A stretch of 49,752 nucleotides of DNA from IMG/VR virus record IMGVR_UViG_3300025530_000155, positions 1 to 49,752 of that record; one strand, 5' to 3'. This DNA is from a virus. Lineage: Duplodnaviria; Caudoviricetes. A program made the position numbers and the translations under genes. The notes beneath the pieces are model-generated. The model did not search any database. It worked only from the letters and a program-made list of their open reading frames with translations, and was not told the DNA's origin. Shown in pieces: positions 4,143 to 22,867 of this stretch. Positions within the stretch are counted from its first letter, which is position 1. The number at the start of each line of letters is the position of its first letter.

Positions 4143-4174
4143 TGGGTTACGAGAACAAGACAGGAGGAATAAAA

Positions 4175-5044
4175 ATGGATTACATAAAGAGGTTTGAAAC
4201 GTATCTACTCACTGATAAGAATGCTTCTCCCGCTACGATCAGAGGTTATGTATCCGACCTCAAGAACTTCGTGAACTTCAAGGGAGAAGACTTGACCGAC
4301 ATCACACCTTCCGATATTCGTGATTTCGTCGCCCACCTGACCAAAACGGGGCGCAAGCGTAGCTCCATCAATCGCGCCGTATGCGCTCTCAAGGCTTTCT
4401 TCAAATACATGAAAGAAGTGGAGAAAGTCTTTCAGGAATCGCCTGCCGAGGAAATCAGAACAACAAAGAAAGAAAAATCCCTTCCCAAGTACATCCACGA
4501 GCAGGAGATTCAGGATATATTGGTCGCCGCCTCAGAGTCGTCAACTCGTGACCGGCTCATCATCGAACTCCTGTACGGCTCGGGCGGACGTGTTAGCGAA
4601 ATCGCACAACTGAGAGTGGAGGACATCGACTTCGACGAAGCCTTCGTCTCCTTGTTCGGTAAGGGTTCCAAAGAACGGAGCAACCCGATTCACGAGGGAT
4701 GTGTAGAACTCATTAGGCGGTACATGGAAGAATACGGGATTACGTCGGGTTACCTGTTCCCACATCGGGGCGACCCCGCCCGCCACATCACGAGAGAAGC
4801 CATTGGCAAGATCGTCAAGCGCGTTGCATCCAAGGCCGGAATTGACCCGAACAAAGTAAGTCCTCACGTCTTCCGTCACAGCTTTGCTACTCACCTGATC
4901 GACAATGGTTGCGACATGGCTCAGGTACAAGAACTTCTCGGGCATGAGGATATTGCAACCACGAAGATATATGCACGTATTACAAAGAAAAGCAAACAAG
5001 CGACCTACGTCAAATTCCATCCTCTCGCTACTAAATCAGTATAA
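4175..5044 (+). CDS. XerC/XerD-like tyrosine recombinase
   Basis: N-terminal SAM-like domain (SPATIRGYVSDL). Catalytic residues R (GRVSE), K (GKGSKER), HxxR (HVFRH), H (LGH) and Y (TKIY). ATG at 4175 behind AGGAGG. Confidence 0.95.
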   Translation: MDYIKRFETYLLTDKNASPATIRGYVSDLKNFVNFKGEDLTDITPSDIRDFVAHLTKTGRKRSSINRAVCALKAFFKYMKEVEKVFQESPAEEIRTTKKEKSLPKYIHEQEIQDILVAASESSTRDRLIIELLYGSGGRVSEIAQLRVEDIDFDEAFVSLFGKGSKERSNPIHEGCVELIRRYMEEYGITSGYLFPHRGDPARHITREAIGKIVKRVASKAGIDPNKVSPHVFRHSFATHLIDNGCDMAQVQELLGHEDIATTKIYARITKKSKQATYVKFHPLATKSV

Positions 5045-5061: not shown

Positions 5062-5096
5062 ATAGCCTACCCTGTGAATGGGTAGGCTGTTTCTTT
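5062..5096. terminator. Terminator between the convergent recombinase gene and appendage operon B
   Basis: AGCCTACCC (5064-5072) / GGGTAGGCT (5080-5088), followed by GTTTCTTT. Confidence 0.8.
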
Positions 5097-6855
5097 ACAT
5101 TATGAAGACGAAGATTTCATCGTCATAGTCATCTTCCGGGATTCGGACGTAAACCGATGACGGCAGGACGCATGATATTTCGATTTCCAACTCCGTTAGA
5201 ATGTCATACGCTCCGACCACCCTAGGTATAACCGTGCCCGGAGTGTCGTACTCCCCGCCGACCCTTATCTTGATGGTGGATGGCAGGTCGTCGTCTTCCG
5301 GTATCCGAGGAATAACCGTACCGTCAAGCTCATGGAAATCGTGTGCCCGGATAATGAAGCTGGAGTCAATGTCCTCATCGTTCGTCCTTCTAATGTGAAC
5401 CACAGACTTGATGAACTCCGACCTGATGAATATGGTGGACGGAATTTCATCGTACTCCAAGGCCCGCGCCACAACACTACCATCAATGTCGCCGTAGAAC
5501 CTGACGTAAATGGTTCCTTCACGTTCGGTAGCATTGATTACTACGCTAGAAGGCAGTTCTTCATTGACTTCCAGTCTCGGAACCACAGAACCCGGCAGGT
5601 CGCCATAATAACGAACCTCAACCGAACCTTCAATCTCAGGTCTGTTGACGACAACATGACCGTAGATTTCGCTGTCCACGTCCCCGCGGACAACCATTGT
5701 TCCATCAAGGTCGCTGTAATACCGGACGAAGATGCAACCTTCAATCTCCGGCCTGTTGACCCGCACGTTGGAATCAATGTCATTACTGTCGGTATGACGG
5801 ACTTTCACAAGGCCATCAATGTCGCCCTCTCCTACGCTAACGACAAACACCGTAGAAGGCAACTCGCTCTTGATAATGACAACTGATGCCGGAAGATCAT
5901 CGTCAACAGGGGCCATAGGGTCTCTTACGGTAACGTGTCCTTCAAGGTCGTCGTCATCCACATAGCTGTTGACGACTACGGAACCCGGAAGATCGTCCTC
6001 CCCTACAGCGTAGATAAACACGCTACTCGGAAGATCGTTCTTCTTGTGACTGTAGATAGTCGGGTCGTAATACTCTATCTCAAGGTAAGGAGGGTGGTCA
6101 CCCTCTCTTGTACCGTACTGCTTGTATTTCCCTAGACTTTCTAGTTCATCGAGCGCCCGGAGCATGAATCCATTGTGCGACCGCCCGCCCTCGTACCACT
6201 CTGACACGTAAGAGGTGAGGTCTATCTCGCTCGTTCCGGGACGCACTCCGCTGTCATACGTCTTTATCAGGGTGCCTTGAGTCGGTTGGTTATCCCACGT
6301 AAGACCGTACTCCGTCCACTCCTGTCCATGTTGGATGTCGTAGACGCCGACGATGTTGGACTGCCTTGTGTTAAGCCTACTGAGGACGAGCGTGGCCCTT
6401 TTGATTTTCTTCCCTTCCGGGATACTGTCTATGACAAACCGAAGGAACGAGCGGTACTTGATTCCGTTAGAGTTCACACCTACGAACATATCGTGGTCGT
6501 GCCCGTAGTTCAGTTTCGGCATGTCATCGCGGGCGTAAGTGTCCTCAACAGGATTCAGACGAACGGTGATCGTAGGGGGCTCTACAACCTCTACGAACCC
6601 GGACATCTTATTGTGCGGACGTACAAACACGCTCGATGGAATGTCGTAGGAGATTGCAGGTTGCACGAACGACGGGAGATCACTGTAATCAGAATATGCA
6701 ATAAATACAGAAGAAAGAAGGTCGGTGTCCTCCGCCGCCCGAACAACCACAGAAGAATCTATATCAAACGGGAAGTTGATTATCAGAATTCCCGGTAGAT
6801 CATGCTCGTTGGCTCCAACAACGAAGACTTTTCCTGTGAACTTGTTTGTTAGCAT
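5095..6855 (-). CDS. Virion appendage protein, operon B: DNRLRE/CBM96-like domain plus beta-strand repeats
   Basis: DTY..NYG..RSFLRF..WTEYGLTWDNQP..PYLEIEY signature, followed by many (D/E)LP(S/G)SVxV-type repeats. Paralogue of the C-terminal part of 12285-15788. Confidence 0.75.
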   Translation of the reverse strand: MLTNKFTGKVFVVGANEHDLPGILIINFPFDIDSSVVVRAAEDTDLLSSVFIAYSDYSDLPSFVQPAISYDIPSSVFVRPHNKMSGFVEVVEPPTITVRLNPVEDTYARDDMPKLNYGHDHDMFVGVNSNGIKYRSFLRFVIDSIPEGKKIKRATLVLSRLNTRQSNIVGVYDIQHGQEWTEYGLTWDNQPTQGTLIKTYDSGVRPGTSEIDLTSYVSEWYEGGRSHNGFMLRALDELESLGKYKQYGTREGDHPPYLEIEYYDPTIYSHKKNDLPSSVFIYAVGEDDLPGSVVVNSYVDDDDLEGHVTVRDPMAPVDDDLPASVVIIKSELPSTVFVVSVGEGDIDGLVKVRHTDSNDIDSNVRVNRPEIEGCIFVRYYSDLDGTMVVRGDVDSEIYGHVVVNRPEIEGSVEVRYYGDLPGSVVPRLEVNEELPSSVVINATEREGTIYVRFYGDIDGSVVARALEYDEIPSTIFIRSEFIKSVVHIRRTNDEDIDSSFIIRAHDFHELDGTVIPRIPEDDDLPSTIKIRVGGEYDTPGTVIPRVVGAYDILTELEIEISCVLPSSVYVRIPEDDYDDEIFVFIM

Positions 6856-6873
6856 TCATGTCCACCGTCCGTT

Positions 6874-6886
6874 CCATTGTATTGGA
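6874..6886 (-). repeat. 13-bp motif TCCAATACAATGG, copy 1
   Basis: Exact match to copies at 11203, 15802 and 18077; here extended to GTTCCA-TTGTAT-TGGAAC on the + strand. Confidence 0.95.
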
Positions 6887-6895
6887 ACCAACCCG

Positions 6896-9337
6896 TCAGG
6901 TGGGGTCGGCTTTGACGAACACGTCAAAGTCGCCCTGCCCCGGTTGACCGTTGATCTGAGTTACAACGCGAACGTAGAACGTAACCTCGTCGTTGTACTG
7001 TAGCGGAGTGTCGAACTCAAGCAGATCAACGGGAACGAAAGGTGTTTCCGTCTTGCTGATCTGAACCTCCGCACTCGGAGGAAGGTTCTTCCTGTCCTTC
7101 CATAGTTGAATGTTGGTTACGGTGAATCCGGTCTTGTTGATGAGGCGAACAGGGTACGTCTCTGATATTTGCCCCGCCACCAAGATTCCTACATCGAGGT
7201 ATTGAAGGACGTTTCCCAAGTCATCGGAATAAAATTCACCTGCTTCATCGGCAAACATGAGACCTGCGTATTCGCCAATAAAGTTCAGTGTTACCGTACT
7301 TTCTTTTCCAAACTGGTCTTGTGCGATTATCGTAACGGTGTTGTCGGAGCCTACATTGACTTCGTTACTACGGAACAGTTTCGAGAATGTGACGGTCGGC
7401 GGCGCCAAGTCAGTGAACTCTTTAGTTTGGTCATCAGGATGCACCTGCGTCCCGTTAAGTAGAACTCTGAACCTTACACTGTCACTCTCCGGGTCTCCGA
7501 TAGACACATCAAGCCTGTTGCCCGTCATTGACGCAGTAATTGCCGGTGCTTGACTGTCTAAGGTTACCGATGTAACCCACGTACCTACGTCACCTTTACT
7601 ATTGACCATCTCTATTGTAATTCGGTTATAACCTAACACAAACCTGCTATTAGGAATAGTATAGCTTATAGAGATGGGAGGCGGCGCTAATGCAGTAAAA
7701 CCAGTCTCAGGATATACTTGAACACCGTTTACAAGAATCCTATATTGAACATCCAAGTTTTCATCTTCTGTAATTGTCCCCGATAAAATTACGTTTTCAT
7801 TGTGAATTGTAGTTTTGTCTAATGATCCTTCAAATTTTATTGACGGTAAAAATTCAATCAATAATACAGGACGAAAACCAAGCGGTATATTCGAAGTACC
7901 TGTAGGTAAAAAATAAGAAACATTATTATTTCCTCTAGTAGCCCTGCTTGAATCAGTTGTACTTACTGTAGTAGAAGTCCAAGATCTTATTCCACTCCAA
8001 TTCCATACATTATTATCCCCTGCTGTAATCGTTCCATTTAGAGTAGAGTTGACAATGTATTTATCCCATTCGTTATCTTTGTCTGTTGAAGATACGCCGC
8101 CTGTAAGTAGACGAATGGTGTATCGTGTTTTATCAACATACGTAGATTCAACTTTTTGCTCGAACAGCAACTCACCGATACCTGTATTAATACCTCCGAA
8201 ATTATCAGTTACCACTATCCTATAATACCTGAACGCTTCTTTGTTAGGGTTGATTAAAAACGTCTTTCTACCTTCATACGAATTTTCTATACTCGCGTTA
8301 TGAAGAATAACCTGCTCCCCTGCAAAATCTCCTGTATTAGATGCTTGCAACGTCCAGTTTTTCGGGGAGTCTCCGGGGCGGCCTACCCTACCCCACAACG
8401 AATACCTACTTATACTAACTGGTCTACCCATATCAATCTGAATCCAACCACTCTTGCCCGTAAACAGCCAACAGTCGCTAGACGATGTATTACTACCATT
8501 GAATGCCTTATAGGCTTCATACGAACTTGAATCCGCGCTAGAACGAGTAATTCTATAAGTATAACCGTTCGCGACCGCCGTATCACTAGAGAATATAGGA
8601 ACGTCTGAATATAAATAAGGGTCAATCTCTACCCCACTTCCACTTGCTATACCTTCACTATTCAAAGTATCCCAACTAATTGCATGTTGGATATTCCTGT
8701 CTGCTATTAACTTCCACCGACCAAGAGAATCTCTGTCTACACAGATAAAGTAAAAGTCTCCTTTCGGAGTATTTGAACTGGACGCAGGAATAAAGTCTCC
8801 TGTTTCTTCCCCTAGTCTACCTAACAGTCCGACCGTATTTTGACTTATAACATTGTAGTTACAACGAATACGTTTACCGATGTCTAAATCTTTAATATCT
8901 GTTACTTCATCAGGATGAAGAAGGCGGCCTGTATCATCAATATCTATAGCATCAATTTGTACATTATTTGCACCAATATCAGATGGAACTATAATTTCAA
9001 CACTATGCTCTGTATTAGATAATCCAGTTTTTTCATAAAGAAGTATTTGTGTTTGATTATATCCTATTTGACTAAATGTTTCGGTTTGTCCATCAATGAT
9101 AATAGGTACATTTGCATGTTTGTTAGTACTTTTAGGACCAATAACTCGCAACTTTGTTCCTTTAAATATAAAAGATATTTTTGCACCTGCTTGATTAGAA
9201 TATCTAGATGTATTTGCATAATGGAGATAATTATCGTCATTATTCCAAGTACCGATATATTTAAATACAGGATCTTTATCGTCATACCTCTTCCACCCCG
9301 GCTCTGGAGCAGTCAATTGATCCCCTACAGTAGCCAT
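6896..9337 (-). CDS. Multi-domain adhesin / receptor-binding protein, operon B
   Basis: N-terminal galactose-binding-like sandwich, a CLec-like domain with a discoidin (F5/8C) insert (SPKNWTLQASN, FRYYRI), Ig-like repeats, and a C-terminal domain shared with 15826-17475. Confidence 0.7.
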   Translation of the reverse strand: MATVGDQLTAPEPGWKRYDDKDPVFKYIGTWNNDDNYLHYANTSRYSNQAGAKISFIFKGTKLRVIGPKSTNKHANVPIIIDGQTETFSQIGYNQTQILLYEKTGLSNTEHSVEIIVPSDIGANNVQIDAIDIDDTGRLLHPDEVTDIKDLDIGKRIRCNYNVISQNTVGLLGRLGEETGDFIPASSSNTPKGDFYFICVDRDSLGRWKLIADRNIQHAISWDTLNSEGIASGSGVEIDPYLYSDVPIFSSDTAVANGYTYRITRSSADSSSYEAYKAFNGSNTSSSDCWLFTGKSGWIQIDMGRPVSISRYSLWGRVGRPGDSPKNWTLQASNTGDFAGEQVILHNASIENSYEGRKTFLINPNKEAFRYYRIVVTDNFGGINTGIGELLFEQKVESTYVDKTRYTIRLLTGGVSSTDKDNEWDKYIVNSTLNGTITAGDNNVWNWSGIRSWTSTTVSTTDSSRATRGNNNVSYFLPTGTSNIPLGFRPVLLIEFLPSIKFEGSLDKTTIHNENVILSGTITEDENLDVQYRILVNGVQVYPETGFTALAPPPISISYTIPNSRFVLGYNRITIEMVNSKGDVGTWVTSVTLDSQAPAITASMTGNRLDVSIGDPESDSVRFRVLLNGTQVHPDDQTKEFTDLAPPTVTFSKLFRSNEVNVGSDNTVTIIAQDQFGKESTVTLNFIGEYAGLMFADEAGEFYSDDLGNVLQYLDVGILVAGQISETYPVRLINKTGFTVTNIQLWKDRKNLPPSAEVQISKTETPFVPVDLLEFDTPLQYNDEVTFYVRVVTQINGQPGQGDFDVFVKADPT

Positions 9338-9442
9338 TTATCTTACACCTCCTTGTATTCTTTACAGAACGTCCTTTTTCTGCGTTTTCTGCCTCTACAA
9401 AATGCTTAATATTCTCCAGAGGCACCTTTCTGTTAGGTGTAG

Positions 9443-10570
9443 CTATTCCTCCATAAACTCTAAGACTGGTCTAAATCCAACTGTGGTATCTGTAGTAGTA
9501 GTAGATGTCAGGTAACTAAAATTATTCGTTCCTGTCGTGCCGCCCCTTGTCACCCTGTTCGTGGCGGCGGCAATAGAAATAATAGGAGTATCTTGCGTCC
9601 AAGTTTTTACTACATCATGGTGAAATACATCAAATAATGTATATCCTTCTTGAACTAACTCTTGTGGAAATCTTAAAATATATTTATCAAATTCATTATT
9701 TGTGGGCCACCCACCGTATCCTTGATCTGTTGTTGAACTATTTCCATTTGCGTCTGCATATGCTACACCGCCTGTGAGGGAACGGATTTTTCCACTGTAT
9801 AACCTATCGTAAAGTCCAATCTCACTAATAATAGTCCACCTTTTATTTGACGTCCTATTATTGTCAAGAATATAAACTCGGTAAAACCGATATTGGGCTT
9901 GGTTATTGAATGAGTAATATCTAACCTCTCCGCCAGCCCAGTTGGTCTCATTGCTTCTATTATCAAGGTCTACCCATACAACTCCATCCACACTTCCTTG
10001 AAATACCCAATCTTTAGGCATAGCAACAGGGTAATCAGTAGAAGACCCTAGAGAATACGCAATTACTTTCTTTTGGTTTCCTTCACCAAAATCGTACTTT
10101 ATCCAAACAGGAGGATCGCTGTTGGATGTCCACGATGACGTGTAGACTGAGATCACCCCATCAAACGCTCGGTATGCTTCTCTCCCCGCCTCATATACAC
10201 TGCTTGCACTTACCGTCCCGAAAGGTTCGGTATCGCTTGTCATAGCCGGAACTAAAGAAAATTCCTTAGTTAATCCTTGAATAAGCTTTCCTGCATTCAA
10301 CGTATTCCAACTAATACTGTGTTGGATAACTCTGTCTGCTACTAGAAGCCCTCCGTATCCGGGCACTTTATCGACCATAACGAAATAAAAGCTTCCGTTA
10401 GGGGCAGCCTCCCCAGTTACAGGTATTTCTGTTCCTGCGGGGCCGCCGAGGTTGCTAAATGTTCCAACCTCCCCGCTTGTTGATGCTTGATATTCACAAA
10501 TAATATAATCCCCTATCTCCATATCTTCAATTCTTGTTCTTAACTGTCCCTTAGTCGCCGGAACTGGCAT
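9443..10570 (-). CDS. Discoidin-containing adhesin, operon B
   Basis: F5/8C motifs (AYRAFDG, MPKDWVFQGSVDG, YRFYRV) inside a domain homologous to the middle of 6896-9337, ending GFRPVLEF. Confidence 0.72.
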   Translation of the reverse strand: MPVPATKGQLRTRIEDMEIGDYIICEYQASTSGEVGTFSNLGGPAGTEIPVTGEAAPNGSFYFVMVDKVPGYGGLLVADRVIQHSISWNTLNAGKLIQGLTKEFSLVPAMTSDTEPFGTVSASSVYEAGREAYRAFDGVISVYTSSWTSNSDPPVWIKYDFGEGNQKKVIAYSLGSSTDYPVAMPKDWVFQGSVDGVVWVDLDNRSNETNWAGGEVRYYSFNNQAQYRFYRVYILDNNRTSNKRWTIISEIGLYDRLYSGKIRSLTGGVAYADANGNSSTTDQGYGGWPTNNEFDKYILRFPQELVQEGYTLFDVFHHDVVKTWTQDTPIISIAAATNRVTRGGTTGTNNFSYLTSTTTTDTTVGFRPVLEFMEE

Positions 10571-10585
10571 GTCTTACACCCACCT

Positions 10586-11191
10586 TCACCATCTAATATT
10601 CCATTTCAGTCTCCCGCCGACTCCTGCCCTGAGAGGGGCATGGAACTCAGCGATCTCTGTTCCGTTTTTCTTAATAACAAGACAACCATCCAAATCTCTA
10701 TCAGCAACCAAAGTAATGTCAAAATAAGCAGGTTTATTATAAGGAATCGAAACAATAGGTTTAAAATTAAACTTAACCCCATCTACTTGCAATTTTACTT
10801 TGTAGCCAAAGTTGTAAGCCGTAATACGTGATGGGAACTTCGTCTCGTCCGATCTCGATAGATTAGCCCACGCCTCAGCATCCTTATAGGTAATTACGTC
10901 GTTATACGGGGCAAACTGGCCCGTGAGGTAGTACTCCTTTCCGTCCGACCTGTAGACAAGTTCGTAGACTTGTCCATTCAATTTAAAAAACCCTCCGCCC
11001 ACTTCGTAGTACAGTTTCATCCCGTGACCTACAAGACCGAAGCGCACGAGCTTGTTTCGCTGGAGGGCGTAGAAGTCTTGGCGCTTTTTCGTCTCAAAGT
11101 CATATTCGGGCAGGCAAGTACCGTCGATATACTCGCCCACCCAAATGAAATCCTGTTCCACGAAGGAGTAAGGGTTCATCGTTGTCAACAT
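10586..11191 (-). CDS. Hypothetical protein, operon B; paralogue of 17476-18066
   Basis: Shares WV(G/A)EYI(D/N)GT, LVRFGLVG, YND(V/I)ITYKDAE and GYKVKL with the paralogue. Confidence 0.8.
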   Translation of the reverse strand: MLTTMNPYSFVEQDFIWVGEYIDGTCLPEYDFETKKRQDFYALQRNKLVRFGLVGHGMKLYYEVGGGFFKLNGQVYELVYRSDGKEYYLTGQFAPYNDVITYKDAEAWANLSRSDETKFPSRITAYNFGYKVKLQVDGVKFNFKPIVSIPYNKPAYFDITLVADRDLDGCLVIKKNGTEIAEFHAPLRAGVGGRLKWNIRW

Positions 11192-11202
11192 ATGTCAAAC
11201 CT

Positions 11203-11215
11203 CCATTGTATTGGA
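11203..11215 (-). repeat. 13-bp motif TCCAATACAATGG, copy 2
   Basis: Exact match; its final GG begins the GGAGG RBS of 10586-11191. Confidence 0.95.
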
Positions 11216-11225
11216 CGTTTTTTTG

Positions 11226-11771
11226 TTACACGTATTGATAAGTGACGCGGGTTCTGAAATTCACAGCGCCCGCCGAAGCATTGCCCGGAACCCGGCAGTG
11301 TAGAGACACTTTGACGTAGTTGCCTTGGGCGTTCTCAAGCGTACCGTCGTTCTTGACGCCTAGAATACTGATCTCTCCGTTCTGCGTCGTGTGCGGAGGA
11401 ACGTTAGGTGTAAACGTACCGTCCTCGTTGGTCGTGCTTCCGAGCGTCTTAATCGGACGAGACACGGCTTGGTTGGTGTCAACGTCCCAGCCGATAGGAT
11501 GGAACGTGGTATCAATTTGGTCAACCTTTACTTCAATCCATTGACCTTCTACCAGTTCACCGGTGTTGCCGCCCCACTCATCCTTCGTCATGATGACTGC
11601 ATTTTGCATGTCAGGAACATCTTCCGTTCCTTTACGGTTGTTCCAAATCAGGAACGTAAAGTCCTGAGACACCTGAGAGGCGTCAACAATACCCAAATCC
11701 CATCTTGTGACTTGCTCGTCGTCACCGTTCGTTTCCGCATACCACGACACGAGAGGTTGAAGAACAGACAT
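11226..11771 (-). CDS. Putative virion fibre subunit, operon B; paralogue of 18134-18601
   Basis: Shares VSWY, GIVDA, TFLIWNNR, GGNTGE and RV(T/A)YQY with the paralogue. Confidence 0.75.
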   Translation of the reverse strand: MSVLQPLVSWYAETNGDDEQVTRWDLGIVDASQVSQDFTFLIWNNRKGTEDVPDMQNAVIMTKDEWGGNTGELVEGQWIEVKVDQIDTTFHPIGWDVDTNQAVSRPIKTLGSTTNEDGTFTPNVPPHTTQNGEISILGVKNDGTLENAQGNYVKVSLHCRVPGNASAGAVNFRTRVTYQYV

Positions 11772-11784
11772 ACTATCGACTCCT

Positions 11785-12192
11785 TTACGTTAGTTGTATA
11801 ACCAACTCGACCGATGCTTTGGTTGCGCCTCCCACCCGGAGCCACTTCAACCTAAAGTGGTCATTCTCGTTGACAGGAACCTCGACCTCAGATTTAACAG
11901 ACTTTCCGCCAGCGGCAAGGATAATCCCGTCGGTTACTTCTTCCCATGAAGGGTCTGTATCAAAGTCGTCCTGAGAACAGCGCTCTACCACCAACTCCGT
12001 CTCCCCGGAGCCGGACGAGACGCAAGATATGTAGACCTCTCTCAAGACCCCTTCATAGGGAAACCTGATTTCGGCAGGAGATATTCCGACATTCGGATTA
12101 GGTATAGAGAAGACGATGACCTTCTCCTGCACCGCCCTCTTTTTCGCAAGGTTATAGGCATCCTGTGCCCTGTCTAGTGCTTTAATGCTCAT
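11785..12192 (-). CDS. Small beta-rich virion protein, first gene of operon B; paralogue of 18616-19056
   Basis: RFPYEGVLREVYISC..SGETELVVE aligns with QFPHDGKIVGVSVFC..SGDTEIIIE. Confidence 0.75.
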   Translation of the reverse strand: MSIKALDRAQDAYNLAKKRAVQEKVIVFSIPNPNVGISPAEIRFPYEGVLREVYISCVSSGSGETELVVERCSQDDFDTDPSWEEVTDGIILAAGGKSVKSEVEVPVNENDHFRLKWLRVGGATKASVELVIQLT

Positions 12193-12224
12193 AAATACCC
12201 TCCCTCCCTCCGCTGTCAGTAGCC

Positions 12225-12253
12225 ATTATAAGTAGGTGCCACCAAACAACAAC
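12225..12253 (-). promoter_or_regulatory. Candidate phage late promoter for operon B
   Basis: GTTGT-N16-CTTATAAT directly after a terminator; same pattern as four other sites. Confidence 0.55.
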
Positions 12254-12255
12254 AG

Positions 12256-12286
12256 GAAAAGGGAAAGCCTACCCGTAGGTAGGCTT
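12256..12286 (-). terminator. Terminator ending operon A
   Basis: AAGCCTACC-TACG-GGTAGGCTT (cUACGg loop), then TCCCTTTT. Confidence 0.8.
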
Positions 12287-15200
12287 ACATGATGAACCCG
12301 TATGACCCCGACACCGACACAATGATCGTCACCGTAATGTCTTTTTCGTCCTCTTTCCTGATCGTTACCTCTGATGTCACATCCTTGTCGTCGGACTGCC
12401 TTACCGTTATACTGGATTCTATACTGCTTGCTTGTATGACTTCGATGTAAGTCATCTTGTCCGAAGCATAGCGAATCCTGACATTGATTCTCGTCGTGAG
12501 GTTCTTGTCTGCCTTGTAAGGAACAACGATGCCCGACAAGAGGTAGCCCGACCTTGTGGTTATTGTGGAGGGCAGGCCGGAATTGCTCCAAACCTCGATG
12601 TCGGAGTCGATGTTGCTGTCGTCGGCCTGTCTTACGACAATATGCGACCCGATTGTGTCTCCGTCTTTCTTGATGACTTGGATGTTACCTTCAATAGCGC
12701 TGGAGATGTAGACGACGACGGAGCCTTCTACCGTGTCTCTCGTTATACCTAGCTGAGTCAGGATAACGTCGTCCTCGGTTCTACGGATGGTGACTTCCGA
12801 ATCTACCGTGTCTTCTTCCGTTCTTCTTGCAATCACCCCGCCGAGCATGAACGGCCTGCTGACGCCAATGAAGGACTCGTTGTCATTCGTTCTACGAACC
12901 CTTACCGTTATGTCACTGCCAATACTGTCGTGGTCAGACTGCCGTACCACGACTCCGCCCGGAACTTCGGGCTTGATGATGGTAAGGAACGATTCCCTCA
13001 TATCTTGGTTGTGGACTTTCATGTAGCTCGGGAAGTTCTCGAATCCCCAATCGCTTTTGACCGTTCCTTTGACGACCAAATCAGCGTACCTTAGTTGGCG
13101 AACCGTAATTCCAGTCTCCGCGTCAAGGTAACCGATGCTCTTGATTTCCGGGTCATAGTATTCAATCTCAAGAACCGGAGCCTCTGTCTCCGCACCCTCT
13201 TTAGTGGAGAAGCGCACATACTGTTTCGTTCCTTGGTCAAACGGCACAAGGTAAAGGCCTTTGTTTTCCTTCTCTCCCTTGTACCACTTGTCTACGATTC
13301 CCATGAGGTCGATAGTCACGAGTCCCTTTTCCCTTCCCACGAGGCGGAAGGCGACTTCCTCTCCGGGCATCGGCCTATTGGCCCACGTAACCCCTAGTTC
13401 TGTCCAGTCCTCGTAAACCTCGTGGACACTCAGACCGATGGGGTCTTCGTTCTCCTGTTTGTTGTATAGCTTCAACTCCGCCCGCACTATCCTCATCCCT
13501 TGAGGGATTGAAGAAATGTCGAAGTAAACGAGCGAATAGAACTTCTCCCCATCGAAGCCCTCGCCGACGACCATCTCTCCATCTACACCATAGTTCAGTC
13601 GAGGAACGTTCTCTCGAACGAAGGCATCCATAATAGGAGCGAATTTCTCCGTTATCCTTGGCGGAGGAACAACATCTAACACAAGCTCCATTCTGTTGTG
13701 CGGCGGAACCGTTATACCGCTGAACACGTTCGACGTGTTCTTGACGGATATCGTCGTCTCTATGTTCTCATGGTAGATCGGAGCCACCTGAGCGGTTGCT
13801 TCCATGTACCCGTTAGGGTTGACGTATATATGAGAAGCCATGTCGCTTCTGTAAGGGATATACACGTATGACTTTACCTGATAGGCTCTTTCCACATGGT
13901 AAGAGAAAAGTTCTATTTCCCCTACAGTTAATTGTTTCCTTGACCCTCCACCTATGTTGTACAGTTGCCACCTATAGTATAGATAAGGCTCTGTAGGATT
14001 ATCGAGTACGAACGTTCTTTTCTCTTGGGCACTCCATACAGACTGTCCGTCAACTCTATGAATCTCGACCCACGTTGAGCCGTCGTTGCTTCCATACAAG
14101 AACCAGCTTTCCGGTGTCGTTCTCCAGTCATTGCCACCTACCACAGCGGGCGCGTGTATAGCATAACCTATAATTGAAACGGGGCTGTTCAACTGTATCT
14201 GTATCCATCCTGACTCCTGCCCGTCTGCGGCCACCCACCTATCTGCATCAACGCTGTTCTTGTGGTCGAACGCTTTCCAAGGGGCGAATGTACCACTATA
14301 CTGAGACGAGGCACTCACTACCTGACCGCTGGATGAGTTTGCGGTCATAGGTAGGGTTACGTCTTCATCCCAATCATAAACGTCGTACTCTATCTCGTTC
14401 TTAAACACAGAGATGGTAGTACATACGTCAAAGTAGGGACTGACCTGAACGCTGGCCTCGATCTGATGTGCATATCTTGTATTCGCCCAAGAATACCGTC
14501 CTCCATATACCCCTATATCGTCGTATCCTCCGTCAGGGGATATTCCGGTTCCTCTCCACTCAACGTCCCCAATGATGTTGAAGCCCTCATCCAATTCCGG
14601 GGTGTCGGTGATGATGTTTGACTGAAAGTCCCAATTCTCTCGCGTAGTGCCGTACCCTGAACTAAACGCACCATAGCAGTTAATAAGTCTCAAGGTTCCA
14701 TGGGTGGTTCTGAGCATATTTCGTGAGGGAGCGTCTTTTACGCAATTCCTCATTACCTTTGTGCCGCCGTTAATGTAGGAATAGTCATTGTCGGGGATGT
14801 TGGTGAAAGCTACGTTGTACCATTCCCAAATATTGGCCGCCGTTATAAAGTTATGTGCATACGTAACATTGTCCTTGTCACCGTCCCAAACCAGTCTGTA
14901 GAAATAAAAGCTGGTCACGCTGTTGTTGGTTCTGTTGGAGTAAATTCCTTCTATGTTCTTTAGTATGGTTTTACGTCCCTGTCCGATAATAGCTACTTTA
15001 GGGCTTTGGGTGGTTTGCGTAAACATGCCGAAGTTATATACTCCCTCGCCCAAAATGACGGCGTAGCTTTTGTTCGACATCCTACTGAACGCAAATTCCA
15101 TCGTCTTGTACGGAAGACTTTTAGTGCCGTACCCTTCCCTGTCCTTTCCGTACTCAGAGTCAATATAAACTACCTCATCGTACTCGCTTAGATCGAGACG

Positions 15201-15788
15201 TGAAGGGGATTCGTCTTCCTTGACGTATCGACTATTGATGTAGACATCCGTGTATAGTGTGAACTCGAGTTCTACTTCGTAGTAGAACTCTACCTCGTCT
15301 AGAGATACGCCCCAGCTTCCGTTCCTAGTCAACTCGAACCTGATATACGGGTAGCCTTCTTCTATGTCATGGGTTACGGCTGTGCCGAACGGCATGGATG
15401 TGTTTACCGTCACCCACGGAACTATTTGCGTATAGCTTGACCCATCAGACGACACGAGTATTCGGTAGTTTGACGTGGCGTCGTTCCTTGTGCGAGGATA
15501 TACCACTATCCTCCTTATCTTCTTGTACACACTCGATCCGATAGCGGTAAAATCAAAGGTAAGGGTTTGGTTTCCGCTGGAACTGGTCATCCAATACCTT
15601 GTAGCTTGGTTGTTCGCGTCAGCTATGGAGCCGTTGAACAGATACTCCATGTAGTAGTAGTTTGAGTTGTTATAGGTATTGGCCGAGCTTGTTACAACAA
15701 CGCCGTTAGGGGCGGTATAGACCCTTTGGTTGGCCCTACCGCCCGTTCCTCCTGACAAGTCTATCTTTTGAAGCAAGGCTTCCGACAT
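12285..15788 (-). CDS. Large virion appendage/adhesin protein, operon A: two discoidin-like domains, a beta-helix-like region, a DNRLRE domain and beta-strand repeats
   Basis: Discoidin motifs (PWKAFD, PESWFLYGSNDG), DSEYGKD..GTKSLPYKT motif, DNRLRE motifs (DAFV..NYG, WTELGVTWANRP, PVLEIEY) and a repetitive C-terminus ending GFIM. Confidence 0.75.
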   Translation of the reverse strand: MSEALLQKIDLSGGTGGRANQRVYTAPNGVVVTSSANTYNNSNYYYMEYLFNGSIADANNQATRYWMTSSSGNQTLTFDFTAIGSSVYKKIRRIVVYPRTRNDATSNYRILVSSDGSSYTQIVPWVTVNTSMPFGTAVTHDIEEGYPYIRFELTRNGSWGVSLDEVEFYYEVELEFTLYTDVYINSRYVKEDESPSRLDLSEYDEVVYIDSEYGKDREGYGTKSLPYKTMEFAFSRMSNKSYAVILGEGVYNFGMFTQTTQSPKVAIIGQGRKTILKNIEGIYSNRTNNSVTSFYFYRLVWDGDKDNVTYAHNFITAANIWEWYNVAFTNIPDNDYSYINGGTKVMRNCVKDAPSRNMLRTTHGTLRLINCYGAFSSGYGTTRENWDFQSNIITDTPELDEGFNIIGDVEWRGTGISPDGGYDDIGVYGGRYSWANTRYAHQIEASVQVSPYFDVCTTISVFKNEIEYDVYDWDEDVTLPMTANSSSGQVVSASSQYSGTFAPWKAFDHKNSVDADRWVAADGQESGWIQIQLNSPVSIIGYAIHAPAVVGGNDWRTTPESWFLYGSNDGSTWVEIHRVDGQSVWSAQEKRTFVLDNPTEPYLYYRWQLYNIGGGSRKQLTVGEIELFSYHVERAYQVKSYVYIPYRSDMASHIYVNPNGYMEATAQVAPIYHENIETTISVKNTSNVFSGITVPPHNRMELVLDVVPPPRITEKFAPIMDAFVRENVPRLNYGVDGEMVVGEGFDGEKFYSLVYFDISSIPQGMRIVRAELKLYNKQENEDPIGLSVHEVYEDWTELGVTWANRPMPGEEVAFRLVGREKGLVTIDLMGIVDKWYKGEKENKGLYLVPFDQGTKQYVRFSTKEGAETEAPVLEIEYYDPEIKSIGYLDAETGITVRQLRYADLVVKGTVKSDWGFENFPSYMKVHNQDMRESFLTIIKPEVPGGVVVRQSDHDSIGSDITVRVRRTNDNESFIGVSRPFMLGGVIARRTEEDTVDSEVTIRRTEDDVILTQLGITRDTVEGSVVVYISSAIEGNIQVIKKDGDTIGSHIVVRQADDSNIDSDIEVWSNSGLPSTITTRSGYLLSGIVVPYKADKNLTTRINVRIRYASDKMTYIEVIQASSIESSITVRQSDDKDVTSEVTIRKEDEKDITVTIIVSVSGSYGFIM

Positions 15789-15801
15789 AACCAGTCACAT
15801 C

Positions 15802-15814
15802 CCATTGTATTGGA
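15802..15814 (-). repeat. 13-bp motif TCCAATACAATGG, copy 3
   Basis: Exact match, 13 nt before the ATG at 15788. Confidence 0.95.
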
Positions 15815-15825
15815 ATATTTGAACC

Positions 15826-17475
15826 TCAGTTTCGAGGTACGGCCTTCGCCATAATCGGGAAGTTTCCTCCAGCCACAGCCCCTTCCTCAGTGGCTATCCT
15901 CACAAAGAACGACACGTCTTCGTCCGGGTCGAGAACAACGCCGTCAAACACAATATAGTCCTCGGGCACGAAGGGGTTGTTGTACTTACTTATCTGTATC
16001 TGAACACCTGATGGAGAAATGGAATTATCAACCCGTACTGATACGTTCTCCACTTCAAATGGGGACAGGTTCCTCAAGTAAACTCTTTGCGGCAACGAAG
16101 TTTGTCCTGCGATCAGCGTACCGAAATCGAGATACTTGAACACGTTGCCCGCGTTGTCCGAATAATACTCACCTTTCCCATCGTGGAACGCCAGTGCAGG
16201 TTTGATGACATATTGCACAGTTAAGACAGGTGAGTTTTCAGGACTATCGGGAGGGACTTGAAAATCTATATATGCGTGTCTAGGCGATACCGGATTTCTC
16301 CTGAACGCTATACCTGTTGTTCTTCTGTCTTTGAAAGGTCTAGTCAAATCTAACTCTATCCACTTCCCCGCCAAGCTTTCCCCTACATCGGGGTTTCCAA
16401 AATACCTTGTTCCCCTATACGGGGTAGAATATATCAAGTAATCGTCTTGTTGCGGTCTCGTAGCATATGTCACAGTCTCATCCCACTCAGTAACTGTAGC
16501 GTAAACCTCCATTGTTATTCCGTCATATCCTAAGTCAGACACGCGACCGTACCCGTCCCTATTAACTTTGATACGCAGAGTGGCTTTACTTACCTCAACT
16601 TGCTCGTTTTTCACTATATCTCTGATTATTTCGGGGTAAGTCAACAAAGAGAATACTTCTTCGTAATTAGAGTATCCGGGGTCATAGGGCCCAACGTACA
16701 TCCTCCCTAGCGCGGCATTGTACCTTGTCCCCGCTATACTTAGATTTTTCCATACGTACCATCCCGTTATAGAGACTGTGGGGTCTACGTATACAGGGTA
16801 CTCTGCGTTTTCCAAGAATTCCTCATCCTCAATTAATACCTTTAGGACGTAGAATTCCCCGTCATGTCCGGTCTCGTACCTTACGCCGTAGCTTATCTCT
16901 CCTGCGGCATCTACCATATAAGGCTTCTCTATTTCCCAAACCGTCTTTCCTGTCTTTTCTTCCACGATGTAGATTTCTTCGCCTTCCTGTTCAACGGATA
17001 CCCCGCCCATCTTCAACGTGTAAGTAAACTCCCTAATGTCCGTCTTACCGTTTAGGATTATATTCTCTTTCAGTTTGTCAGGGTTGGCTACGTACTCAAC
17101 GTCCACTCCTTCAAAACAGTTCTTGAAAACGAACGTCTCCTGACCTTTTTCGGCTTCTGTGGGATTGGCTCCTTTCAGTTTATAATTAAGCCATAATTCG
17201 TCCCCGTCCTCATTTACAAACTCTATTCCTACAAGGTGCTTATTTTCACTGGTCAGGTCTTGAAAGTAAGCCCTATAAACGTTCTCCGTAAGTGCATGGG
17301 AAAACTCCCAACTCTTTCTCTCTTTAATATCTAGGTTAACTTCCTCCCACGTTCCATCTTCCGTCTTGTAGTGGATAGGGTAGGACATTACCCTAGTTTC
17401 AAACTTTCCGCCGCCGAGGTCGAAAGTCTTTGAAGTCATTGTTCTCTTTTTTATTACCTCTATCATATCCCCCAC
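15826..17475 (-). CDS. Adhesin-like protein, operon A: WapA-like N-terminal domain, DNRLRE-like domain and conserved C-terminal domain
   Basis: RTMTSKTF..PIHYK..W, LKENIIL, KPYMVDA and YPVYVDPT; then WDETVTYATRP. C-terminal YSDNAGNVFKYLDFGTLIAGQTS matches 6896-9337. Confidence 0.7.
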   Translation of the reverse strand: MGDMIEVIKKRTMTSKTFDLGGGKFETRVMSYPIHYKTEDGTWEEVNLDIKERKSWEFSHALTENVYRAYFQDLTSENKHLVGIEFVNEDGDELWLNYKLKGANPTEAEKGQETFVFKNCFEGVDVEYVANPDKLKENIILNGKTDIREFTYTLKMGGVSVEQEGEEIYIVEEKTGKTVWEIEKPYMVDAAGEISYGVRYETGHDGEFYVLKVLIEDEEFLENAEYPVYVDPTVSITGWYVWKNLSIAGTRYNAALGRMYVGPYDPGYSNYEEVFSLLTYPEIIRDIVKNEQVEVSKATLRIKVNRDGYGRVSDLGYDGITMEVYATVTEWDETVTYATRPQQDDYLIYSTPYRGTRYFGNPDVGESLAGKWIELDLTRPFKDRRTTGIAFRRNPVSPRHAYIDFQVPPDSPENSPVLTVQYVIKPALAFHDGKGEYYSDNAGNVFKYLDFGTLIAGQTSLPQRVYLRNLSPFEVENVSVRVDNSISPSGVQIQISKYNNPFVPEDYIVFDGVVLDPDEDVSFFVRIATEEGAVAGGNFPIMAKAVPRN

Positions 17476-18066
17476 CTACCTTAATTCCCAATTAATACTT
17501 CCGCCCACTTCTTTCTTTAGCGGAGCGTCAATAACGCCAACTTCTCTATTGTTTCGGTAAATAACCAACTTACCATCCAAGTCAACGTTAGACACGAGCC
17601 TGAACTCAATCCTAGCTCTTTGCTGTAGAGGAATCTGACAGATAGCCCGGAAGTTTAACTTCACATCATCAAAGTCCAGTTTCACCTTGTATCCGACATT
17701 GAACTGCGTGATTACGTTGTACCCGGAGCCTGCGACCTTCGGGTCAAACAAAAATTCAGCATCTTTGTAGGTAATGATGTCGTTATACAGTATAGGTCTG
17801 CCAATGATCGGGTACGCCGTGTCTCCGACAACATACTTCGCCGTAATCATTTGACCGGCAATCTTGAAGATGCCGCCCAAGACCTCGAAGTAAGCGCTTA
17901 CTCCGTCGCCCACAAGACCGAAACGAACAAGCGAATTTCGGTCTATGTCGTAGAAGTTGTTTTCCTGCTTCGTAACGTAGTCAAACTCCGACAAGTAGGT
18001 TCCATTGATGTACTCCGCCACCCACGAGAACGGTTGTCTTGTTGGAGCTTTTGGATTCAAGAACAT
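17476..18066 (-). CDS. Hypothetical protein, operon A; paralogue of 10586-11191
   Basis: Full-length similarity to the paralogue is visible by eye. Confidence 0.8.
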   Translation of the reverse strand: MFLNPKAPTRQPFSWVAEYINGTYLSEFDYVTKQENNFYDIDRNSLVRFGLVGDGVSAYFEVLGGIFKIAGQMITAKYVVGDTAYPIIGRPILYNDIITYKDAEFLFDPKVAGSGYNVITQFNVGYKVKLDFDDVKLNFRAICQIPLQQRARIEFRLVSNVDLDGKLVIYRNNREVGVIDAPLKKEVGGSINWELR

Positions 18067-18076
18067 AACCTTTCCC

Positions 18077-18089
18077 CCATTGTATTGGA
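18077..18089 (-). repeat. 13-bp motif TCCAATACAATGG, copy 4
   Basis: Exact match, 10 nt before the ATG at 18066, overlapping the G-rich RBS. Confidence 0.95.
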
Positions 18090-18095
18090 CGAATT

Positions 18096-18127
18096 AAAAG
18101 TCATCCCCGCACAGTAAGTGCAGGGAT
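18096..18127 (-). terminator. Terminator/attenuator after the 155-aa subunit gene
   Basis: ATCCCTGCAC-TTACT-GTGCGGGGAT, then GACTTTT. Confidence 0.65.
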
Positions 18128-18133
18128 ATTGGA

Positions 18134-18601
18134 TTACGTGTATTGGTAAGCCACCCGTGTCAGGAAGGTGAAATTACCAGCCGTAGCCGTTGCAGGGACG
18201 TTTGCGTGAAGCGTAACCTTCGCGTAGTTTTGCTCTGCGCCGAGCGAACCGTCGTTTGCAGAGCCTTTGATCTTCCCTGCGTCGCCGCCCGACAGCCCTT
18301 TGGCTTGGATGGCTTTGGTGGTCGTTCCGCCAATCGGCGTGAAATCAGTTTCATCCATCGAGTCAACGCGGGCCTCAATCCACTTGTTCAGGACGATCTC
18401 GCCCGTGTTGCCGCCGAGGATGTCCTTGGTCGTGATCGTGCAGTTGGTCATATCCGACAGGGCTTCCGAGCCGCCACGATTGTTCCAAATCAAGAACGTG
18501 GTGTCGGGTGACACGCTACCTGCATCGACGATGCCAATTTGCCAATCAGTCTTTTGCTCAGTGTTGCTGACATCGTACCACGATACAATCGGAGCCGCCA
18601 T
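18134..18601 (-). CDS. Putative abundant virion fibre subunit, operon A
   Basis: 155 aa, Gly/Ala/Thr-rich beta protein. Codon style resembles the capsid gene by eye, and a hairpin follows. Paralogue of 11226-11771. Confidence 0.75.
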   Translation of the reverse strand: MAAPIVSWYDVSNTEQKTDWQIGIVDAGSVSPDTTFLIWNNRGGSEALSDMTNCTITTKDILGGNTGEIVLNKWIEARVDSMDETDFTPIGGTTTKAIQAKGLSGGDAGKIKGSANDGSLGAEQNYAKVTLHANVPATATAGNFTFLTRVAYQYT

Positions 18602-18615
18602 TTCCCATCAACCTT

Positions 18616-19056
18616 TCACTCATAGATTTTTACGGTCAGTTGAACCGTGAAGCCCTCAGCACCCTCGCTGACGGCAGGAACGTTCAATCTGATATAGTCG
18701 AACCTGTTAATCGTTTCATCAGACACGAGACTAACGTCTGCCGTGCTGGTCAGTTCGTTGGCAGGGATAACGGCAGGGGAGCTTAGAATCTCCGTCCACT
18801 CCCCGCCTGTGTATCCATCGACAGGACTCTTTTCAATGATAATTTCGGTGTCTCCGCTTACCCCCGCCTTAGAGCAGAAAACAGAAACGCCGACTATCTT
18901 CCCGTCATGGGGAAACTGAACAACAAGCGACTGCGCGCCAAGGTTCGTAACCTTCGGCAGAACAAGCACGATGGTCTTCGTGTCCGCTCCGCTTTCAAGG
19001 AACTGGCTCAGTTTATTCGCACTAAGCACCGCCTTGTTGTAGGAGAGGATGTCCAC
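18616..19056 (-). CDS. Small beta-rich virion protein, first gene of operon A
   Basis: Paralogue of 11785-12192; RBS GGGAGTGG. Confidence 0.75.
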   Translation of the reverse strand: MDILSYNKAVLSANKLSQFLESGADTKTIVLVLPKVTNLGAQSLVVQFPHDGKIVGVSVFCSKAGVSGDTEIIIEKSPVDGYTGGEWTEILSSPAVIPANELTSTADVSLVSDETINRFDYIRLNVPAVSEGAEGFTVQLTVKIYE

Positions 19057-21772: not shown

Positions 21773-22867
21773 TTACCACACATTGATAACGAAGTCAAAC
21801 AGGTAGTCGTCTACCATTACCGGGACGGAGCTTCGTGTTATCCTAGCCCAAAAGAACACGCTTCCGCTGGCCGGTACTTGACTTATCATTAGGGATTTTT
21901 GGAAGTTTCCGCTCGGAACGCCGTTCACGTCTTCGCAGATTTCGACCCATTCCCACCCGAACTCATTCATGTATTGCTGAATAGCAATATTTACATTGTC
22001 GTGCGGAATGTTGCTCATGTTCCTGAGTTCGAGTCTGAAATCTTTGTAGAACGAGTCTATGTACCCGAAGTCATTTTCGTGAACATCCAGCGGCTCCCCG
22101 TTGTAGTACACTTCAAGGAAGTTTCCGCAGTGGAACACATCCCCTCCGAACACGTCGTCGTGAACACCCTGAGCCGTCAGGTTACCTTCTTCGTCGTACA
22201 CTTTGACTTCGATCTTGAGCGGCATGACGTACTCGAACACGCTCAAGTCTTCTTCGTAGCCACAGTCTTCGAGGACTGCAATCAGCACCGGGTCTTCCTC
22301 CCGGATGTCGTAAATCTCGACCCTTGCGTTCTTAGGGAGCGCCCTAAAGCTTATCTTCGTGTCCTCGTAGACGGAGAGGGTATGAATCTTTAGCGTCTCC
22401 CCCTCGTCTCCCTCAAGCTCGACGCCCCACAGGGTCGCATTGGGAAACTTAATGGAGCCGCGAATGTCCCAATCCTTACCATTCTCCGAACCGTAGCCCT
22501 CGTACTCGTCTCCCTTCTTCACCATCCGAACATACGGATACGATAGAGTTGTCCCGATTTCTTCGTTGTAATATTCCAACAGTTCCAGCTTCTCCGAGTC
22601 TGTGATGTACGCGACGAACCCTCCGAAGTCCTTGGACATTATAGGATTGTACGTGTTACGCATCTCAAGAACAGCGTTCGTCGGCAACTCTCTAAGGAGA
22701 TAAGCAGGGAACTTGCCATGAAGGAGGTTGAGAGTACCGTCAGTCAAGTCTATATAAAACCGATCAGTGGACGGGTGCATCTGCCACCCGTCCGCGATCA
22801 GGTCAATGCTATTGCGAAAGTCCTCGTGGACAATCTTCCCCGACTTGACACGCTTGACGTGAATCAC
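21773..22867 (-). CDS. Virion protein with ConA-like beta-sandwich and C-terminal Ig-like domain
   Basis: YVRMVKKGDEYEGYGSENGKDW lectin-like motif; C-terminal DFG..LELRN..VFFWARI. Confidence 0.6.
   Translation of the reverse strand: MIHVKRVKSGKIVHEDFRNSIDLIADGWQMHPSTDRFYIDLTDGTLNLLHGKFPAYLLRELPTNAVLEMRNTYNPIMSKDFGGFVAYITDSEKLELLEYYNEEIGTTLSYPYVRMVKKGDEYEGYGSENGKDWDIRGSIKFPNATLWGVELEGDEGETLKIHTLSVYEDTKISFRALPKNARVEIYDIREEDPVLIAVLEDCGYEEDLSVFEYVMPLKIEVKVYDEEGNLTAQGVHDDVFGGDVFHCGNFLEVYYNGEPLDVHENDFGYIDSFYKDFRLELRNMSNIPHDNVNIAIQQYMNEFGWEWVEICEDVNGVPSGNFQKSLMISQVPASGSVFFWARITRSSVPVMVDDYLFDFVINVW

Follow-up and report, generated by a model that had tools for sequence, protein, structure and literature searches.

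The 49,752-nucleotide viral record IMGVR_UViG_3300025530_000155, hereafter the window, carries two tandem and distantly related copies, A and B, of a five-gene cassette that occurs in many unrelated phages. They belong to a real, conserved phage module, pilin-like in predicted fold and in layout, that is apparently undescribed and fails membership in every named pilus family. The module very probably serves adhesion as part of the virion. More tentatively, we propose that the products of each cassette assemble into an adhesive appendage of the virion, whose parts are joined by pilin-type strand complementation on a string of repeats. The window is a linear record, about 40% complete, and covers the structural arm of a siphophage of Bacillales that resembles Jenst; the capsid is 68-70% identical to those of Jenst and EZ-2018a. 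Portal, capsid, tape measure and tail-tip genes are followed by the two cassettes, a tyrosine recombinase on the opposite strand and lysis genes. A literature search on gp361, donor strands and SP-15 fibres, confined to papers available without subscription, found no description of the cassette or of a pilin-like fibre in a phage virion.

All eleven open reading frames of the cassettes lie on the minus strand at the coordinates and lengths given by an earlier sequence-only reading, and are named here by cassette and length in amino acids (aa; Table 1). As that reading had it, A and B correspond gene for gene, with 27-46% identity over five pairs in pairwise BLASTP: A146 and B135 (27%, E 2e-7), A155 and B181 (46%, E 3e-39), A196 and B201 (45%, E 5e-53), the C-terminal parts of A549 and B813 (32%, E 7e-22) and 540 aa of A1167 and B586 (27%, E 2e-48). 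B375 has no counterpart in A and matches residues 146-497 of B813 (E 5e-33).

A conserved cassette beside phage tail genes

The small subunit A155 has matches in 15 of 50,697 phage records, several phages being filed twice. The carriers are phage G, SP-15, LIS04, Jenst, SecTim467, Sundance, EZ-2018a, c-st, Perkons and LC76P1, among which passages of the respective reports describe both myophages (LIS04, PMC12160530; G) and siphophages (PMC4909266, PMC13245101). In the same records, the 196 family (15 records), the anchor domain of the adhesins (13) and the repeat region (10) are confined to the 15 that bear a subunit. A full profile search with the subunit returned 315 clusters at 50% identity.

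The order base, subunit, 196-type protein, adhesin or adhesins, repeat protein is kept in phage G (gp360-367), SP-15 (gp59-64), Jenst and c-st. We collected 34 viral and 24 bacterial-genome loci, sets that hold near-duplicates and overlap in a few near-identical loci. The 196-type gene comes directly after the subunit gene in 33/34 viral and 23/24 genome loci, an adhesin is present in 31/34 and 23/24, and a repeat protein in 29/34 and 22/24; most absences fall at locus ends. The cassette is a conserved, self-contained unit, which in most phages lies beside the tail genes, between them and the lysis genes, independently of tail type.

Each cassette has one to four adhesins with a shared C-terminal anchor and differing N-terminal domains, and 56 of 58 adhesins end within three residues of the end of the anchor model. 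The polarity noticed earlier, lectin at the N-terminus and anchor at the C-terminus with variable lectin tips, is borne out. The lectin-type domains found with Pfam are discoidin, CBM96 and CE2_N-like. Perkons has a diversity-generating retroelement (DGR) inside its cassette: 32/32 mismatches between template repeat (TR) and variable repeat (VR) fall at TR adenines, a reverse transcriptase is adjacent, and the target is a passenger gene at the position of B375. The cassettes of the window itself showed no DGR. Reads of runs X2-X4 cover the conserved parts but hardly or not at all the lectin parts (about 16180-17447 and 8570-10470), a pattern at most consistent with tip variation; no RNA data set was listed as containing the stretch. 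SP-15 gp61 (L037:11120-13672) is the sole adhesin type with a tail after the anchor, 122 residues rich in Ser and Asp. This tail may supply its own strand or, since SP-15 lacks a 146-type base, may link gp61 to the baseplate.

In relatives, the A146-type domain is as a rule joined to a tail-region protein at that protein's C-terminal end, which suggests that the 146/135 domain is a base or adaptor coupling a fibre to that protein; A146 has no match in the PDB. The AlphaFold model of A196 (predicted local distance difference test, pLDDT, 93.9) is a twisted all-beta structure that best resembles beta-supersandwich sheets (Z 9.7, root-mean-square deviation (rmsd) 2.8, 128 residues aligned), with no PapD row in the top 50. 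Foldseek against viral models returned one uncharacterised homologue, Pfam gave no chaperone match for A196, and a crude hydropathy scan found no transmembrane helix in the 196/201 proteins. The assembly factor of the sequence-only reading thus does not appear to be PapD-like. As its gene invariably adjoins the subunit gene, the 196/201 protein may still be an assembly factor or adaptor.

Related terminators end both cassettes, as had been read from the DNA, and the two AGCCTACC hairpins are the sole GCCTAC...GTAGGC hairpins on that strand of the window. Our viral counts of hairpins, codon use, trees, repeats and upstream elements leave out seven of the 34 loci that are truncated or near-duplicates (L017, L026, L027, L030, L033, L036 and L038), drop L001-L003 as repeats of L009, L037 and L018, and add c-st and the window. 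Behind the subunit gene, a terminator-like hairpin occurs in 13/30 cases, behind the base gene in 0/26, the 196 gene in 0/31, an adhesin gene in 3/41 and the last gene in 12/21; the genome set gives 6/25, 0/23, 0/24, 3/36 and 13/16, respectively. A terminator so often placed after the subunit gene suggests a high copy number for its product. Signs of high subunit expression are found in this hairpin and, more modestly, in codon use, A155 ranking 4th-5th of 34 window genes for codons ending in C (NNC), behind tube and capsid. In fim and pap operons, the gene for the abundant subunit likewise comes first, with a stem-loop behind it.

The element CAATACAATG, absent from the earlier observations, is conserved from phage G to c-st. 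It stands immediately ahead of the ribosome-binding site, on the 5' side, at 20/31 viral 196 genes and 21/28 viral repeat genes; with a slightly looser pattern, the genome set gives 19/24 and 21/22. At other genes it is rare (0-2 for each class). There are 59 forward and 3 reverse matches in 583 kb, and in five whole genomes 8/12 matches fall at 196 or repeat sites (a reversed control gives 2). No Rfam family matches it at gathering level. Our guess is an RNA operator that would match the output of the 196 and repeat genes. A promoter -10 role was judged unlikely, because the element directly adjoins the ribosome-binding site and no further conserved element lies upstream; so was a coding upstream open reading frame, since the element shares the reading frame of A196 and not that of B201. 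The candidate promoter ascribed to B is present, CTTATAATG at 12231, though a sigma-70 scan omits it. The word recurs at 48422 (48415-48422, minus strand) and in intergenic sites of Jenst-like relatives, and is likely a late-promoter -10 element.

Subunit fold and repeat protein

The AlphaFold model of A155 has a pLDDT of 96.4, with residues 17-29 outside beta-pairing. Among predicted viral structures it matches the SP-15 orthologue, phage G gp173 and five adhesins of the cassette family (TM 0.50-0.55), and the top PDB rows in Foldseek are FimA, FimG, TasA and CfaB. VIA alignments run from model residue 1-5 to 153-155 and cover whole pilin bodies (FimA 18-159, FimH 158-279, PapA 19-163, PapG 194-316). 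The longest are those to TLP-1b (15-237, 133 aligned, rmsd 4.0, Z 6.6) and TasA (41-233, 130 aligned, rmsd 3.8, Z 5.6), and the model begins past the donor segments of both. ASH/PapD-like/MSP domains (CEP192, HYDIN, VAP) score higher (Z 7.1-7.6, rmsd 2.2-2.7, about 90-100 aligned), and share an LDFG-type motif with the subunit. These, unlike the subunit, are complete domains, and the alignments stop 16-28 residues before their ends (HYDIN 5-96 of 112, MSP 4-96 of 124, VAP-A 11-102 of 126). Judged from these alignment ranges and the DSSP string, the subunit is probably an immunoglobulin (Ig) sandwich that lacks strand G and ends at strand F, like a pilin body; strand names (F, G) follow the usual convention for the fold.

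The termini agree with such a body. Gly stands at -14 in 115/120 and Tyr or Phe at -2 in 108/120 subunit homologues, the same C-terminus as in 5/5 E. coli Fim subunits, and distant members keep Gly at -13 to -15 in 125/140 and an aromatic at -2 in 117/140. Among 150 listed distant homologues are 109 whose alignment reaches both ends; 108 of these end within four residues of Tyr152, and in 108 an N-terminal extension is absent, the W8 equivalent falling within the first 12 residues. W8 is at position 8 in 103/120 homologues, and P4, W8 and N13 are conserved. Since the family has no N-terminal extension, the missing strand would have to come from another chain. Mean-field coupling analysis (effective number of sequences 92) recovered some expected strand pairs and could not place strand 4-10.

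BLASTP does not detect a relation between the subunit and the adhesin C-domain. Profile comparison does (E 4e-4; score 25.1 against a maximum of 16.5 over 25 column shuffles), with a weaker match from a second alignment pair (E 0.003 over 37 columns), and since structure agrees, the shared fold proposed earlier is supported. The further link drawn to a 364-aa protein outside the cassettes stands in part: its C-domain matches the adhesin anchor (probability 87%, E 4e-6), while its match to the small protein reaches no better than E 0.02. The adhesin anchor retains the equivalent first strand within its fused chain.

Neither the subunit nor the 196 protein, the base or the anchor domain had a sequence match in Pfam, NCBIfam or the PDB, and ESM Atlas matches to A155 are unnamed, mostly viral clusters, with none for A196. 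Peptidase_M73 (TasA) matched none of 117 subunit-family members at E up to 5. The crude hydropathy scan found neither transmembrane segment nor signal-like N-terminus in the cassette proteins, LPxTG was missing from the C-terminal 60 residues of 12 proteins, and there was no sortase or usher family match among 30 scanned proteins.

Three loci with altered or isolated subunit genes stand apart. Phage G gp173 (L040:12148-12690) is a stand-alone structural homologue (TM 0.75 to the A155 model; hidden Markov model E 1.4e-5) whose gene immediately precedes those for neck and sheath. It is a candidate for the outer coil of phage G; passages of PMC8570332 state that the outer coil and fibre genes are unassigned. 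At L067:10001-10492, an orphan subunit gene lies within a degraded element interrupted by an insertion sequence and is followed by a second copy of the gene's 3' end. In Perkons, a group I intron-like match (L051:12756-13028; RF00028, 38.2 bits against a gathering threshold of 50, E 4e-8) lies at the 3' end of the subunit gene, and the annotated product of that gene ends a few residues early.

Of the two repeat proteins, B586 holds 27 and A1167 22 repeats by an iterated matrix, compared with mostly 0-2 in adhesins (maximum 6) and 0-3 in other window proteins. The consensus is D-L-x-S/G-S-I-x-V-R, interrupted by CBM96 domains, and the spacing is mostly 11, 12 or 14 residues (90, 208 and 224 cases). 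Homologues carry up to 53-55 repeats and most end in Y-x-F-I-M. A 1311-aa protein (22879-26814) was rejected as a second string, with 0 repeats by the same matrix. In Jenst-like phages it is inherited together with the 364-aa protein (21773-22867), the bearer of a third anchor-like domain. Homologues of the 1311-aa protein, 884 to >1400 aa long, have a conserved C-terminal W-x-W-K-K-T-R tail that is absent from the window copy.

Models of the proposed appendage

Apart from the repeats, the cassette offers no obvious free strands, and the repeats never travel without their would-be acceptors; on this ground we propose a string with beads. Subunit and adhesin anchor would be PapD/pilin-type Ig domains that end at strand F and receive the missing strand from another chain. 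The periodic strands of the 1167/586-aa protein would run through many 155/181-aa subunits and a small number of lectin adhesins, the donors being the 22-55 D-L-x-S/G-x-I-x-V repeats, whose spacing of 11, 12 or 14 residues corresponds to about 37-47 Å when extended, roughly the length of one Ig domain. The outcome would be a thin fibre that displays CBM96, discoidin and other lectin domains over its length, a length that the number of repeats would determine. Termination behind the subunit gene would leave subunit in excess, the shared CAATACAATG element may hold the string and the 196-aa factor to equally low amounts, and the 146/135 domain would couple the fibre to whatever tail-region protein the phage has. 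The repeats are probably the core of the structure; that they donate strands to the Ig domains is a proposal to which we give somewhat less than an even chance. A fuller version is less probable again: a portable appendage of new architecture, with a ruler chain of 22-55 donor strands that would thread dozens of acceptor-only pilin domains and the lectin tips, a swappable base on siphophage and myophage tails, the RNA operator CAAUACAAUG, and phage G relatives (gp361/gp367, gp173) forming fibres or the outer coil.

The sequence-only reading had instead seen a pilus-like shaft with a tip adhesin. For this, the 155/181-aa protein would polymerise head to tail by swapping the strand at its N-terminus (residues 3-10), and the adhesin anchor would cap the tip. 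The pilin-like fold and C-terminus, the fold common to subunit and anchor, the high-expression signals, the conserved P4, W8 and N13 and a weak V6-V150 coupling fit this picture. Self-donation is nevertheless not borne out: with nothing ahead of the first body strand in 108/109 homologues, a classical head-to-tail pilus is doubtful. Model residue 1 aligns past the donor segment of TasA and TLP-1b, the adhesin anchor keeps the equivalent first strand inside its fused chain, and the obligatory repeat protein is left without a role. Chaperone-usher pili (Fim, P, CFA/I) share with the cassette an Ig body ending at strand F, Gly(-14)/Tyr(-2) and adhesins with an N-terminal lectin and C-terminal pilin domain, but they have a donor extension, signal peptides and an usher, none of which was found here, and a PapD-type factor, which the 196/201 protein does not appear to resemble; the obligatory repeat protein of the phage-encoded cassette has no counterpart in them. 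To TasA/TLP-1 fibres the subunit aligns over 130 and 133 of 155 residues, with a Z of 5.6-6.6. Their N-terminal donor segment falls outside the aligned range, and a SipW-type peptidase was not found in the cassette. Donor-strand exchange is described for TLP-1, TasA, CS17 and CupE in passages of PMC11494351. The Pam pilus of the Candidate Phyla Radiation (CPR) shares the acceptor-only design: according to passages of PMC13278184, PamT is a single truncated Ig domain without donor strand, and PamR is proposed to donate its N-terminal strand in trans. As described there, however, the Pam pilus is secreted, membrane-anchored (PamC/D), reported from CPR only and grows head to tail, and its pilins have two domains with an internal linker strand, whereas the cassette subunit has one; here, too, the acceptor-only unit is seemingly the abundant one.

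The claim that the fibres are not trimeric was not established, as 22-27 strand repeats could equally form a trimeric beta-helix. The repeat protein might then be an intertwined trimeric fibre with its own lectins, the 196 protein its chaperone or cap at the Y-x-F-I-M end, and subunit and anchors low-copy adaptors at the tail tip. Triple beta-helices suit regular short spacing, and spacings of 11, 12 or 14 with one hydrophobic or small face fit them; the C-terminal aromatic motif is conserved, the repeat and 196 genes share an upstream motif, and the cassette sits where tail fibre genes usually sit. It further resembles trimeric tail fibres and spikes with Tfa/gp38-type chaperones in its lectins, DGR and periodic beta repeats. 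We consider this arrangement unlikely, because it leaves the strand-deficient Ig domains of subunit and adhesins without a donor and the terminator after the subunit gene unexplained, the repeats are never found without the subunit, and the polarity is reversed (variable N-terminus, conserved C-terminus). Moreover, the cassette has a free Ig subunit homologous to the anchor, and its proteins have no Pfam tail-fibre or chaperone match. Strand complementation in trans is the likeliest mechanism of the three, followed by this fibre and then by the classical pilus. An analogue of the proposed string is the tandem beta-zipper (FnBPA or SfbI on fibronectin F1), in which one extended chain adds a strand to a row of beta domains; there, however, the strand joins the edge of complete modules in a contact between host and pathogen, not in a self-encoded assembly.

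Several observations weigh against strand complementation or against a virion appendage altogether. The best Foldseek PDB match of A155 is weak (E 1.8e-3, TM 0.34-0.45), the best VIA score (Z 7.6) goes to ciliary and centrosomal ASH/PapD-like domains and not to pilins, none reaching Z 8, and the subunit profile is marginal against Fim subunits (19.1 against a shuffled maximum of 16.6). The missing strand was deduced from alignment ranges and a DSSP string, and residues 4-10 could occupy the slot, with a weak V6-V150 coupling. Pilin donors follow V-x-F-x-G-x-V, and the repeat, with its small residue second, is the mirror of that pattern; its 11-residue spacing is short for one domain. Subunit codon bias exceeds that of the 196 gene in 18/28 loci only and that of the repeat gene in 15/24 (p 0.19), B181 lacks the hairpin and has ordinary codon use (0.59), and gp173 has no adjoining repeat gene. 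Passages of PMC12484599 report phage G gp365, encoded inside the cassette, in particle proteomics; because the same data set lists many non-structural enzymes, this evidence is weak, and gp361 appears there only as 'hypothetical'. The passages on transmission electron microscopy for Jenst/SecTim467/Sundance, Perkons and LIS04 mention no fibres.

Such silence would suit an adhesive released by the lysogen or at lysis (spore coat, biofilm or host-surface appendage) that is no part of the virion, as would the many carriers that are prophages in Paenibacillus and Brevibacillus genomes and the phage G cassette about 160 kb from the tail genes. This we regard as very improbable: the crude scan found no export signals, most phages, among them the reportedly lytic LIS04, carry the cassette between their tail and lysis genes, the base domain is fused to tail-region proteins, a DGR targets the cassette, and gp365 is among the reported particle proteins.

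Two cassettes in one phage

The sequence-only reading described two self-contained cassettes. They are that, and apparently interchangeable, but they are not each other's closest relatives. In neither tree are A and B sisters; A clusters with L005-L008 (support 97/97 and 99/97) and B falls outside, a placement read from support values without a formal one-clade test. DNA identity between the cassettes is <60%, and GC content at third codon positions (GC3) is 0.34-0.35 in the B lectin genes against 0.5-0.7 elsewhere. A recent tandem duplication was rejected on these three grounds. The foreign composition of the B lectin genes and the lack of a sister relation between A and B make it likely that B came from another phage. 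A contig of another study spans the A/B junction (run X2, record 10, window 11052-13520), so the junction is no assembly artefact.

Relatives of B181 were compared in five other metagenome contigs, a sixth, L048, being the window's own. Three of them (L045, L046 and L047), 94-97% identical to the window, carry B without A and show three different deletion breakpoints (18869 to 12335, 19059 to 12525 and 20108 to 12410); L045 retains a 5' stub of A146 plus A's terminator. L050 has a different block ahead of B181, and L049 is too short to judge. As near-identical relatives lost A by different deletions, the cassettes appear interchangeable and each sufficient alone. A second, independent tandem pair occurs in L064 (Desulfocucumis palustris), the sole one in 58 loci within the 10 kb fetched, and L008 duplicates only the adhesin and repeat genes.

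A XerC/D-type recombinase (window 4142-5044, opposite strand) lies directly past the cassette, as in Jenst, and a GIY-YIG-type homing endonuclease (window 40478-41641) stands between putative tail tube and tail chaperone genes, with no intron match.

Table 1. Features of cassettes A and B and related elements; positions refer to the window unless a locus is named
Feature	Position	Strand	Description
A146	18616..19056	-	Putative base/adaptor domain; phrog_11315/34854 match
A155	18134..18601	-	Small subunit with Ig fold; predicted to act as acceptor only, since it stops at strand F and lacks an N-terminal extension
Terminator-like hairpin	18102..18128	-	Immediately 3' of A155 gene
TCCAATACAATGG motif	18077..18089	-	Just 5' of A196 ribosome-binding site
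A196	17476..18066	-	All-beta; subunit gene always adjoins; putative assembly factor/adaptor
A549	15826..17475	-	Adhesin: variable N-terminal part, C-terminal subunit-like Ig domain (residues ~425-549)
TCCAATACAATGG motif	15802..15814	-	5' of A1167
A1167	12285..15788	-	Two discoidin (F5/8) domains, CBM96/DNRLRE, ~22 strand repeats, C-terminal YGFIM; proposed string/scaffold
AGCCTACC terminator-like hairpin	12265..12286	-	End of cassette A
TTATAATG	12224..12231	-	Candidate late-promoter -10 element for cassette B (putative function)
B135	11785..12192	-	A146 paralogue
B181	11226..11771	-	A155 paralogue; no terminator-like hairpin behind gene
TCCAATACAATGG motif	11203..11215	-	5' of B201
B201	10586..11191	-	A196 paralogue
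B375	9443..10570	-	Passenger lectin (discoidin domain), no Ig anchor domain
B813	6896..9337	-	Adhesin: CE2_N-like, discoidin, Ig-like spacers, C-terminal subunit-like domain
TCCAATACAATGG motif	6874..6886	-	5' of B586
B586	5095..6855	-	~27 strand repeats broken by CBM96 domain, C-terminal FVFIM; proposed string/scaffold
AGCCTACC terminator-like hairpin	5064..5088	-	End of cassette B
364-aa protein	21773..22867	-	Outside cassettes; C-domain related to adhesin anchor domain
Perkons DGR	L051:16196-16554 and 16718-17794		VR/TR and reverse transcriptase

Dual receptor specificity, as the sequence-only reading supposed, is plausible. A is dispensable in near-identical relatives, which carry B alone, and the tandem pair may either serve two receptors or mark a phase in which one cassette replaces the other. 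In the cultured phages G, SP-15 and Jenst the cassette lacks annotation, so its role could be tested at once. If the proposed model is true, phages use pilin chemistry for attachment, with donor strands provided in trans on a length-setting string, and the cassette would offer a programmable scaffold for multivalent display. The natural relatives with A and B, with B only and with swapped tips provide a ready case of receptor-module replacement in progress.

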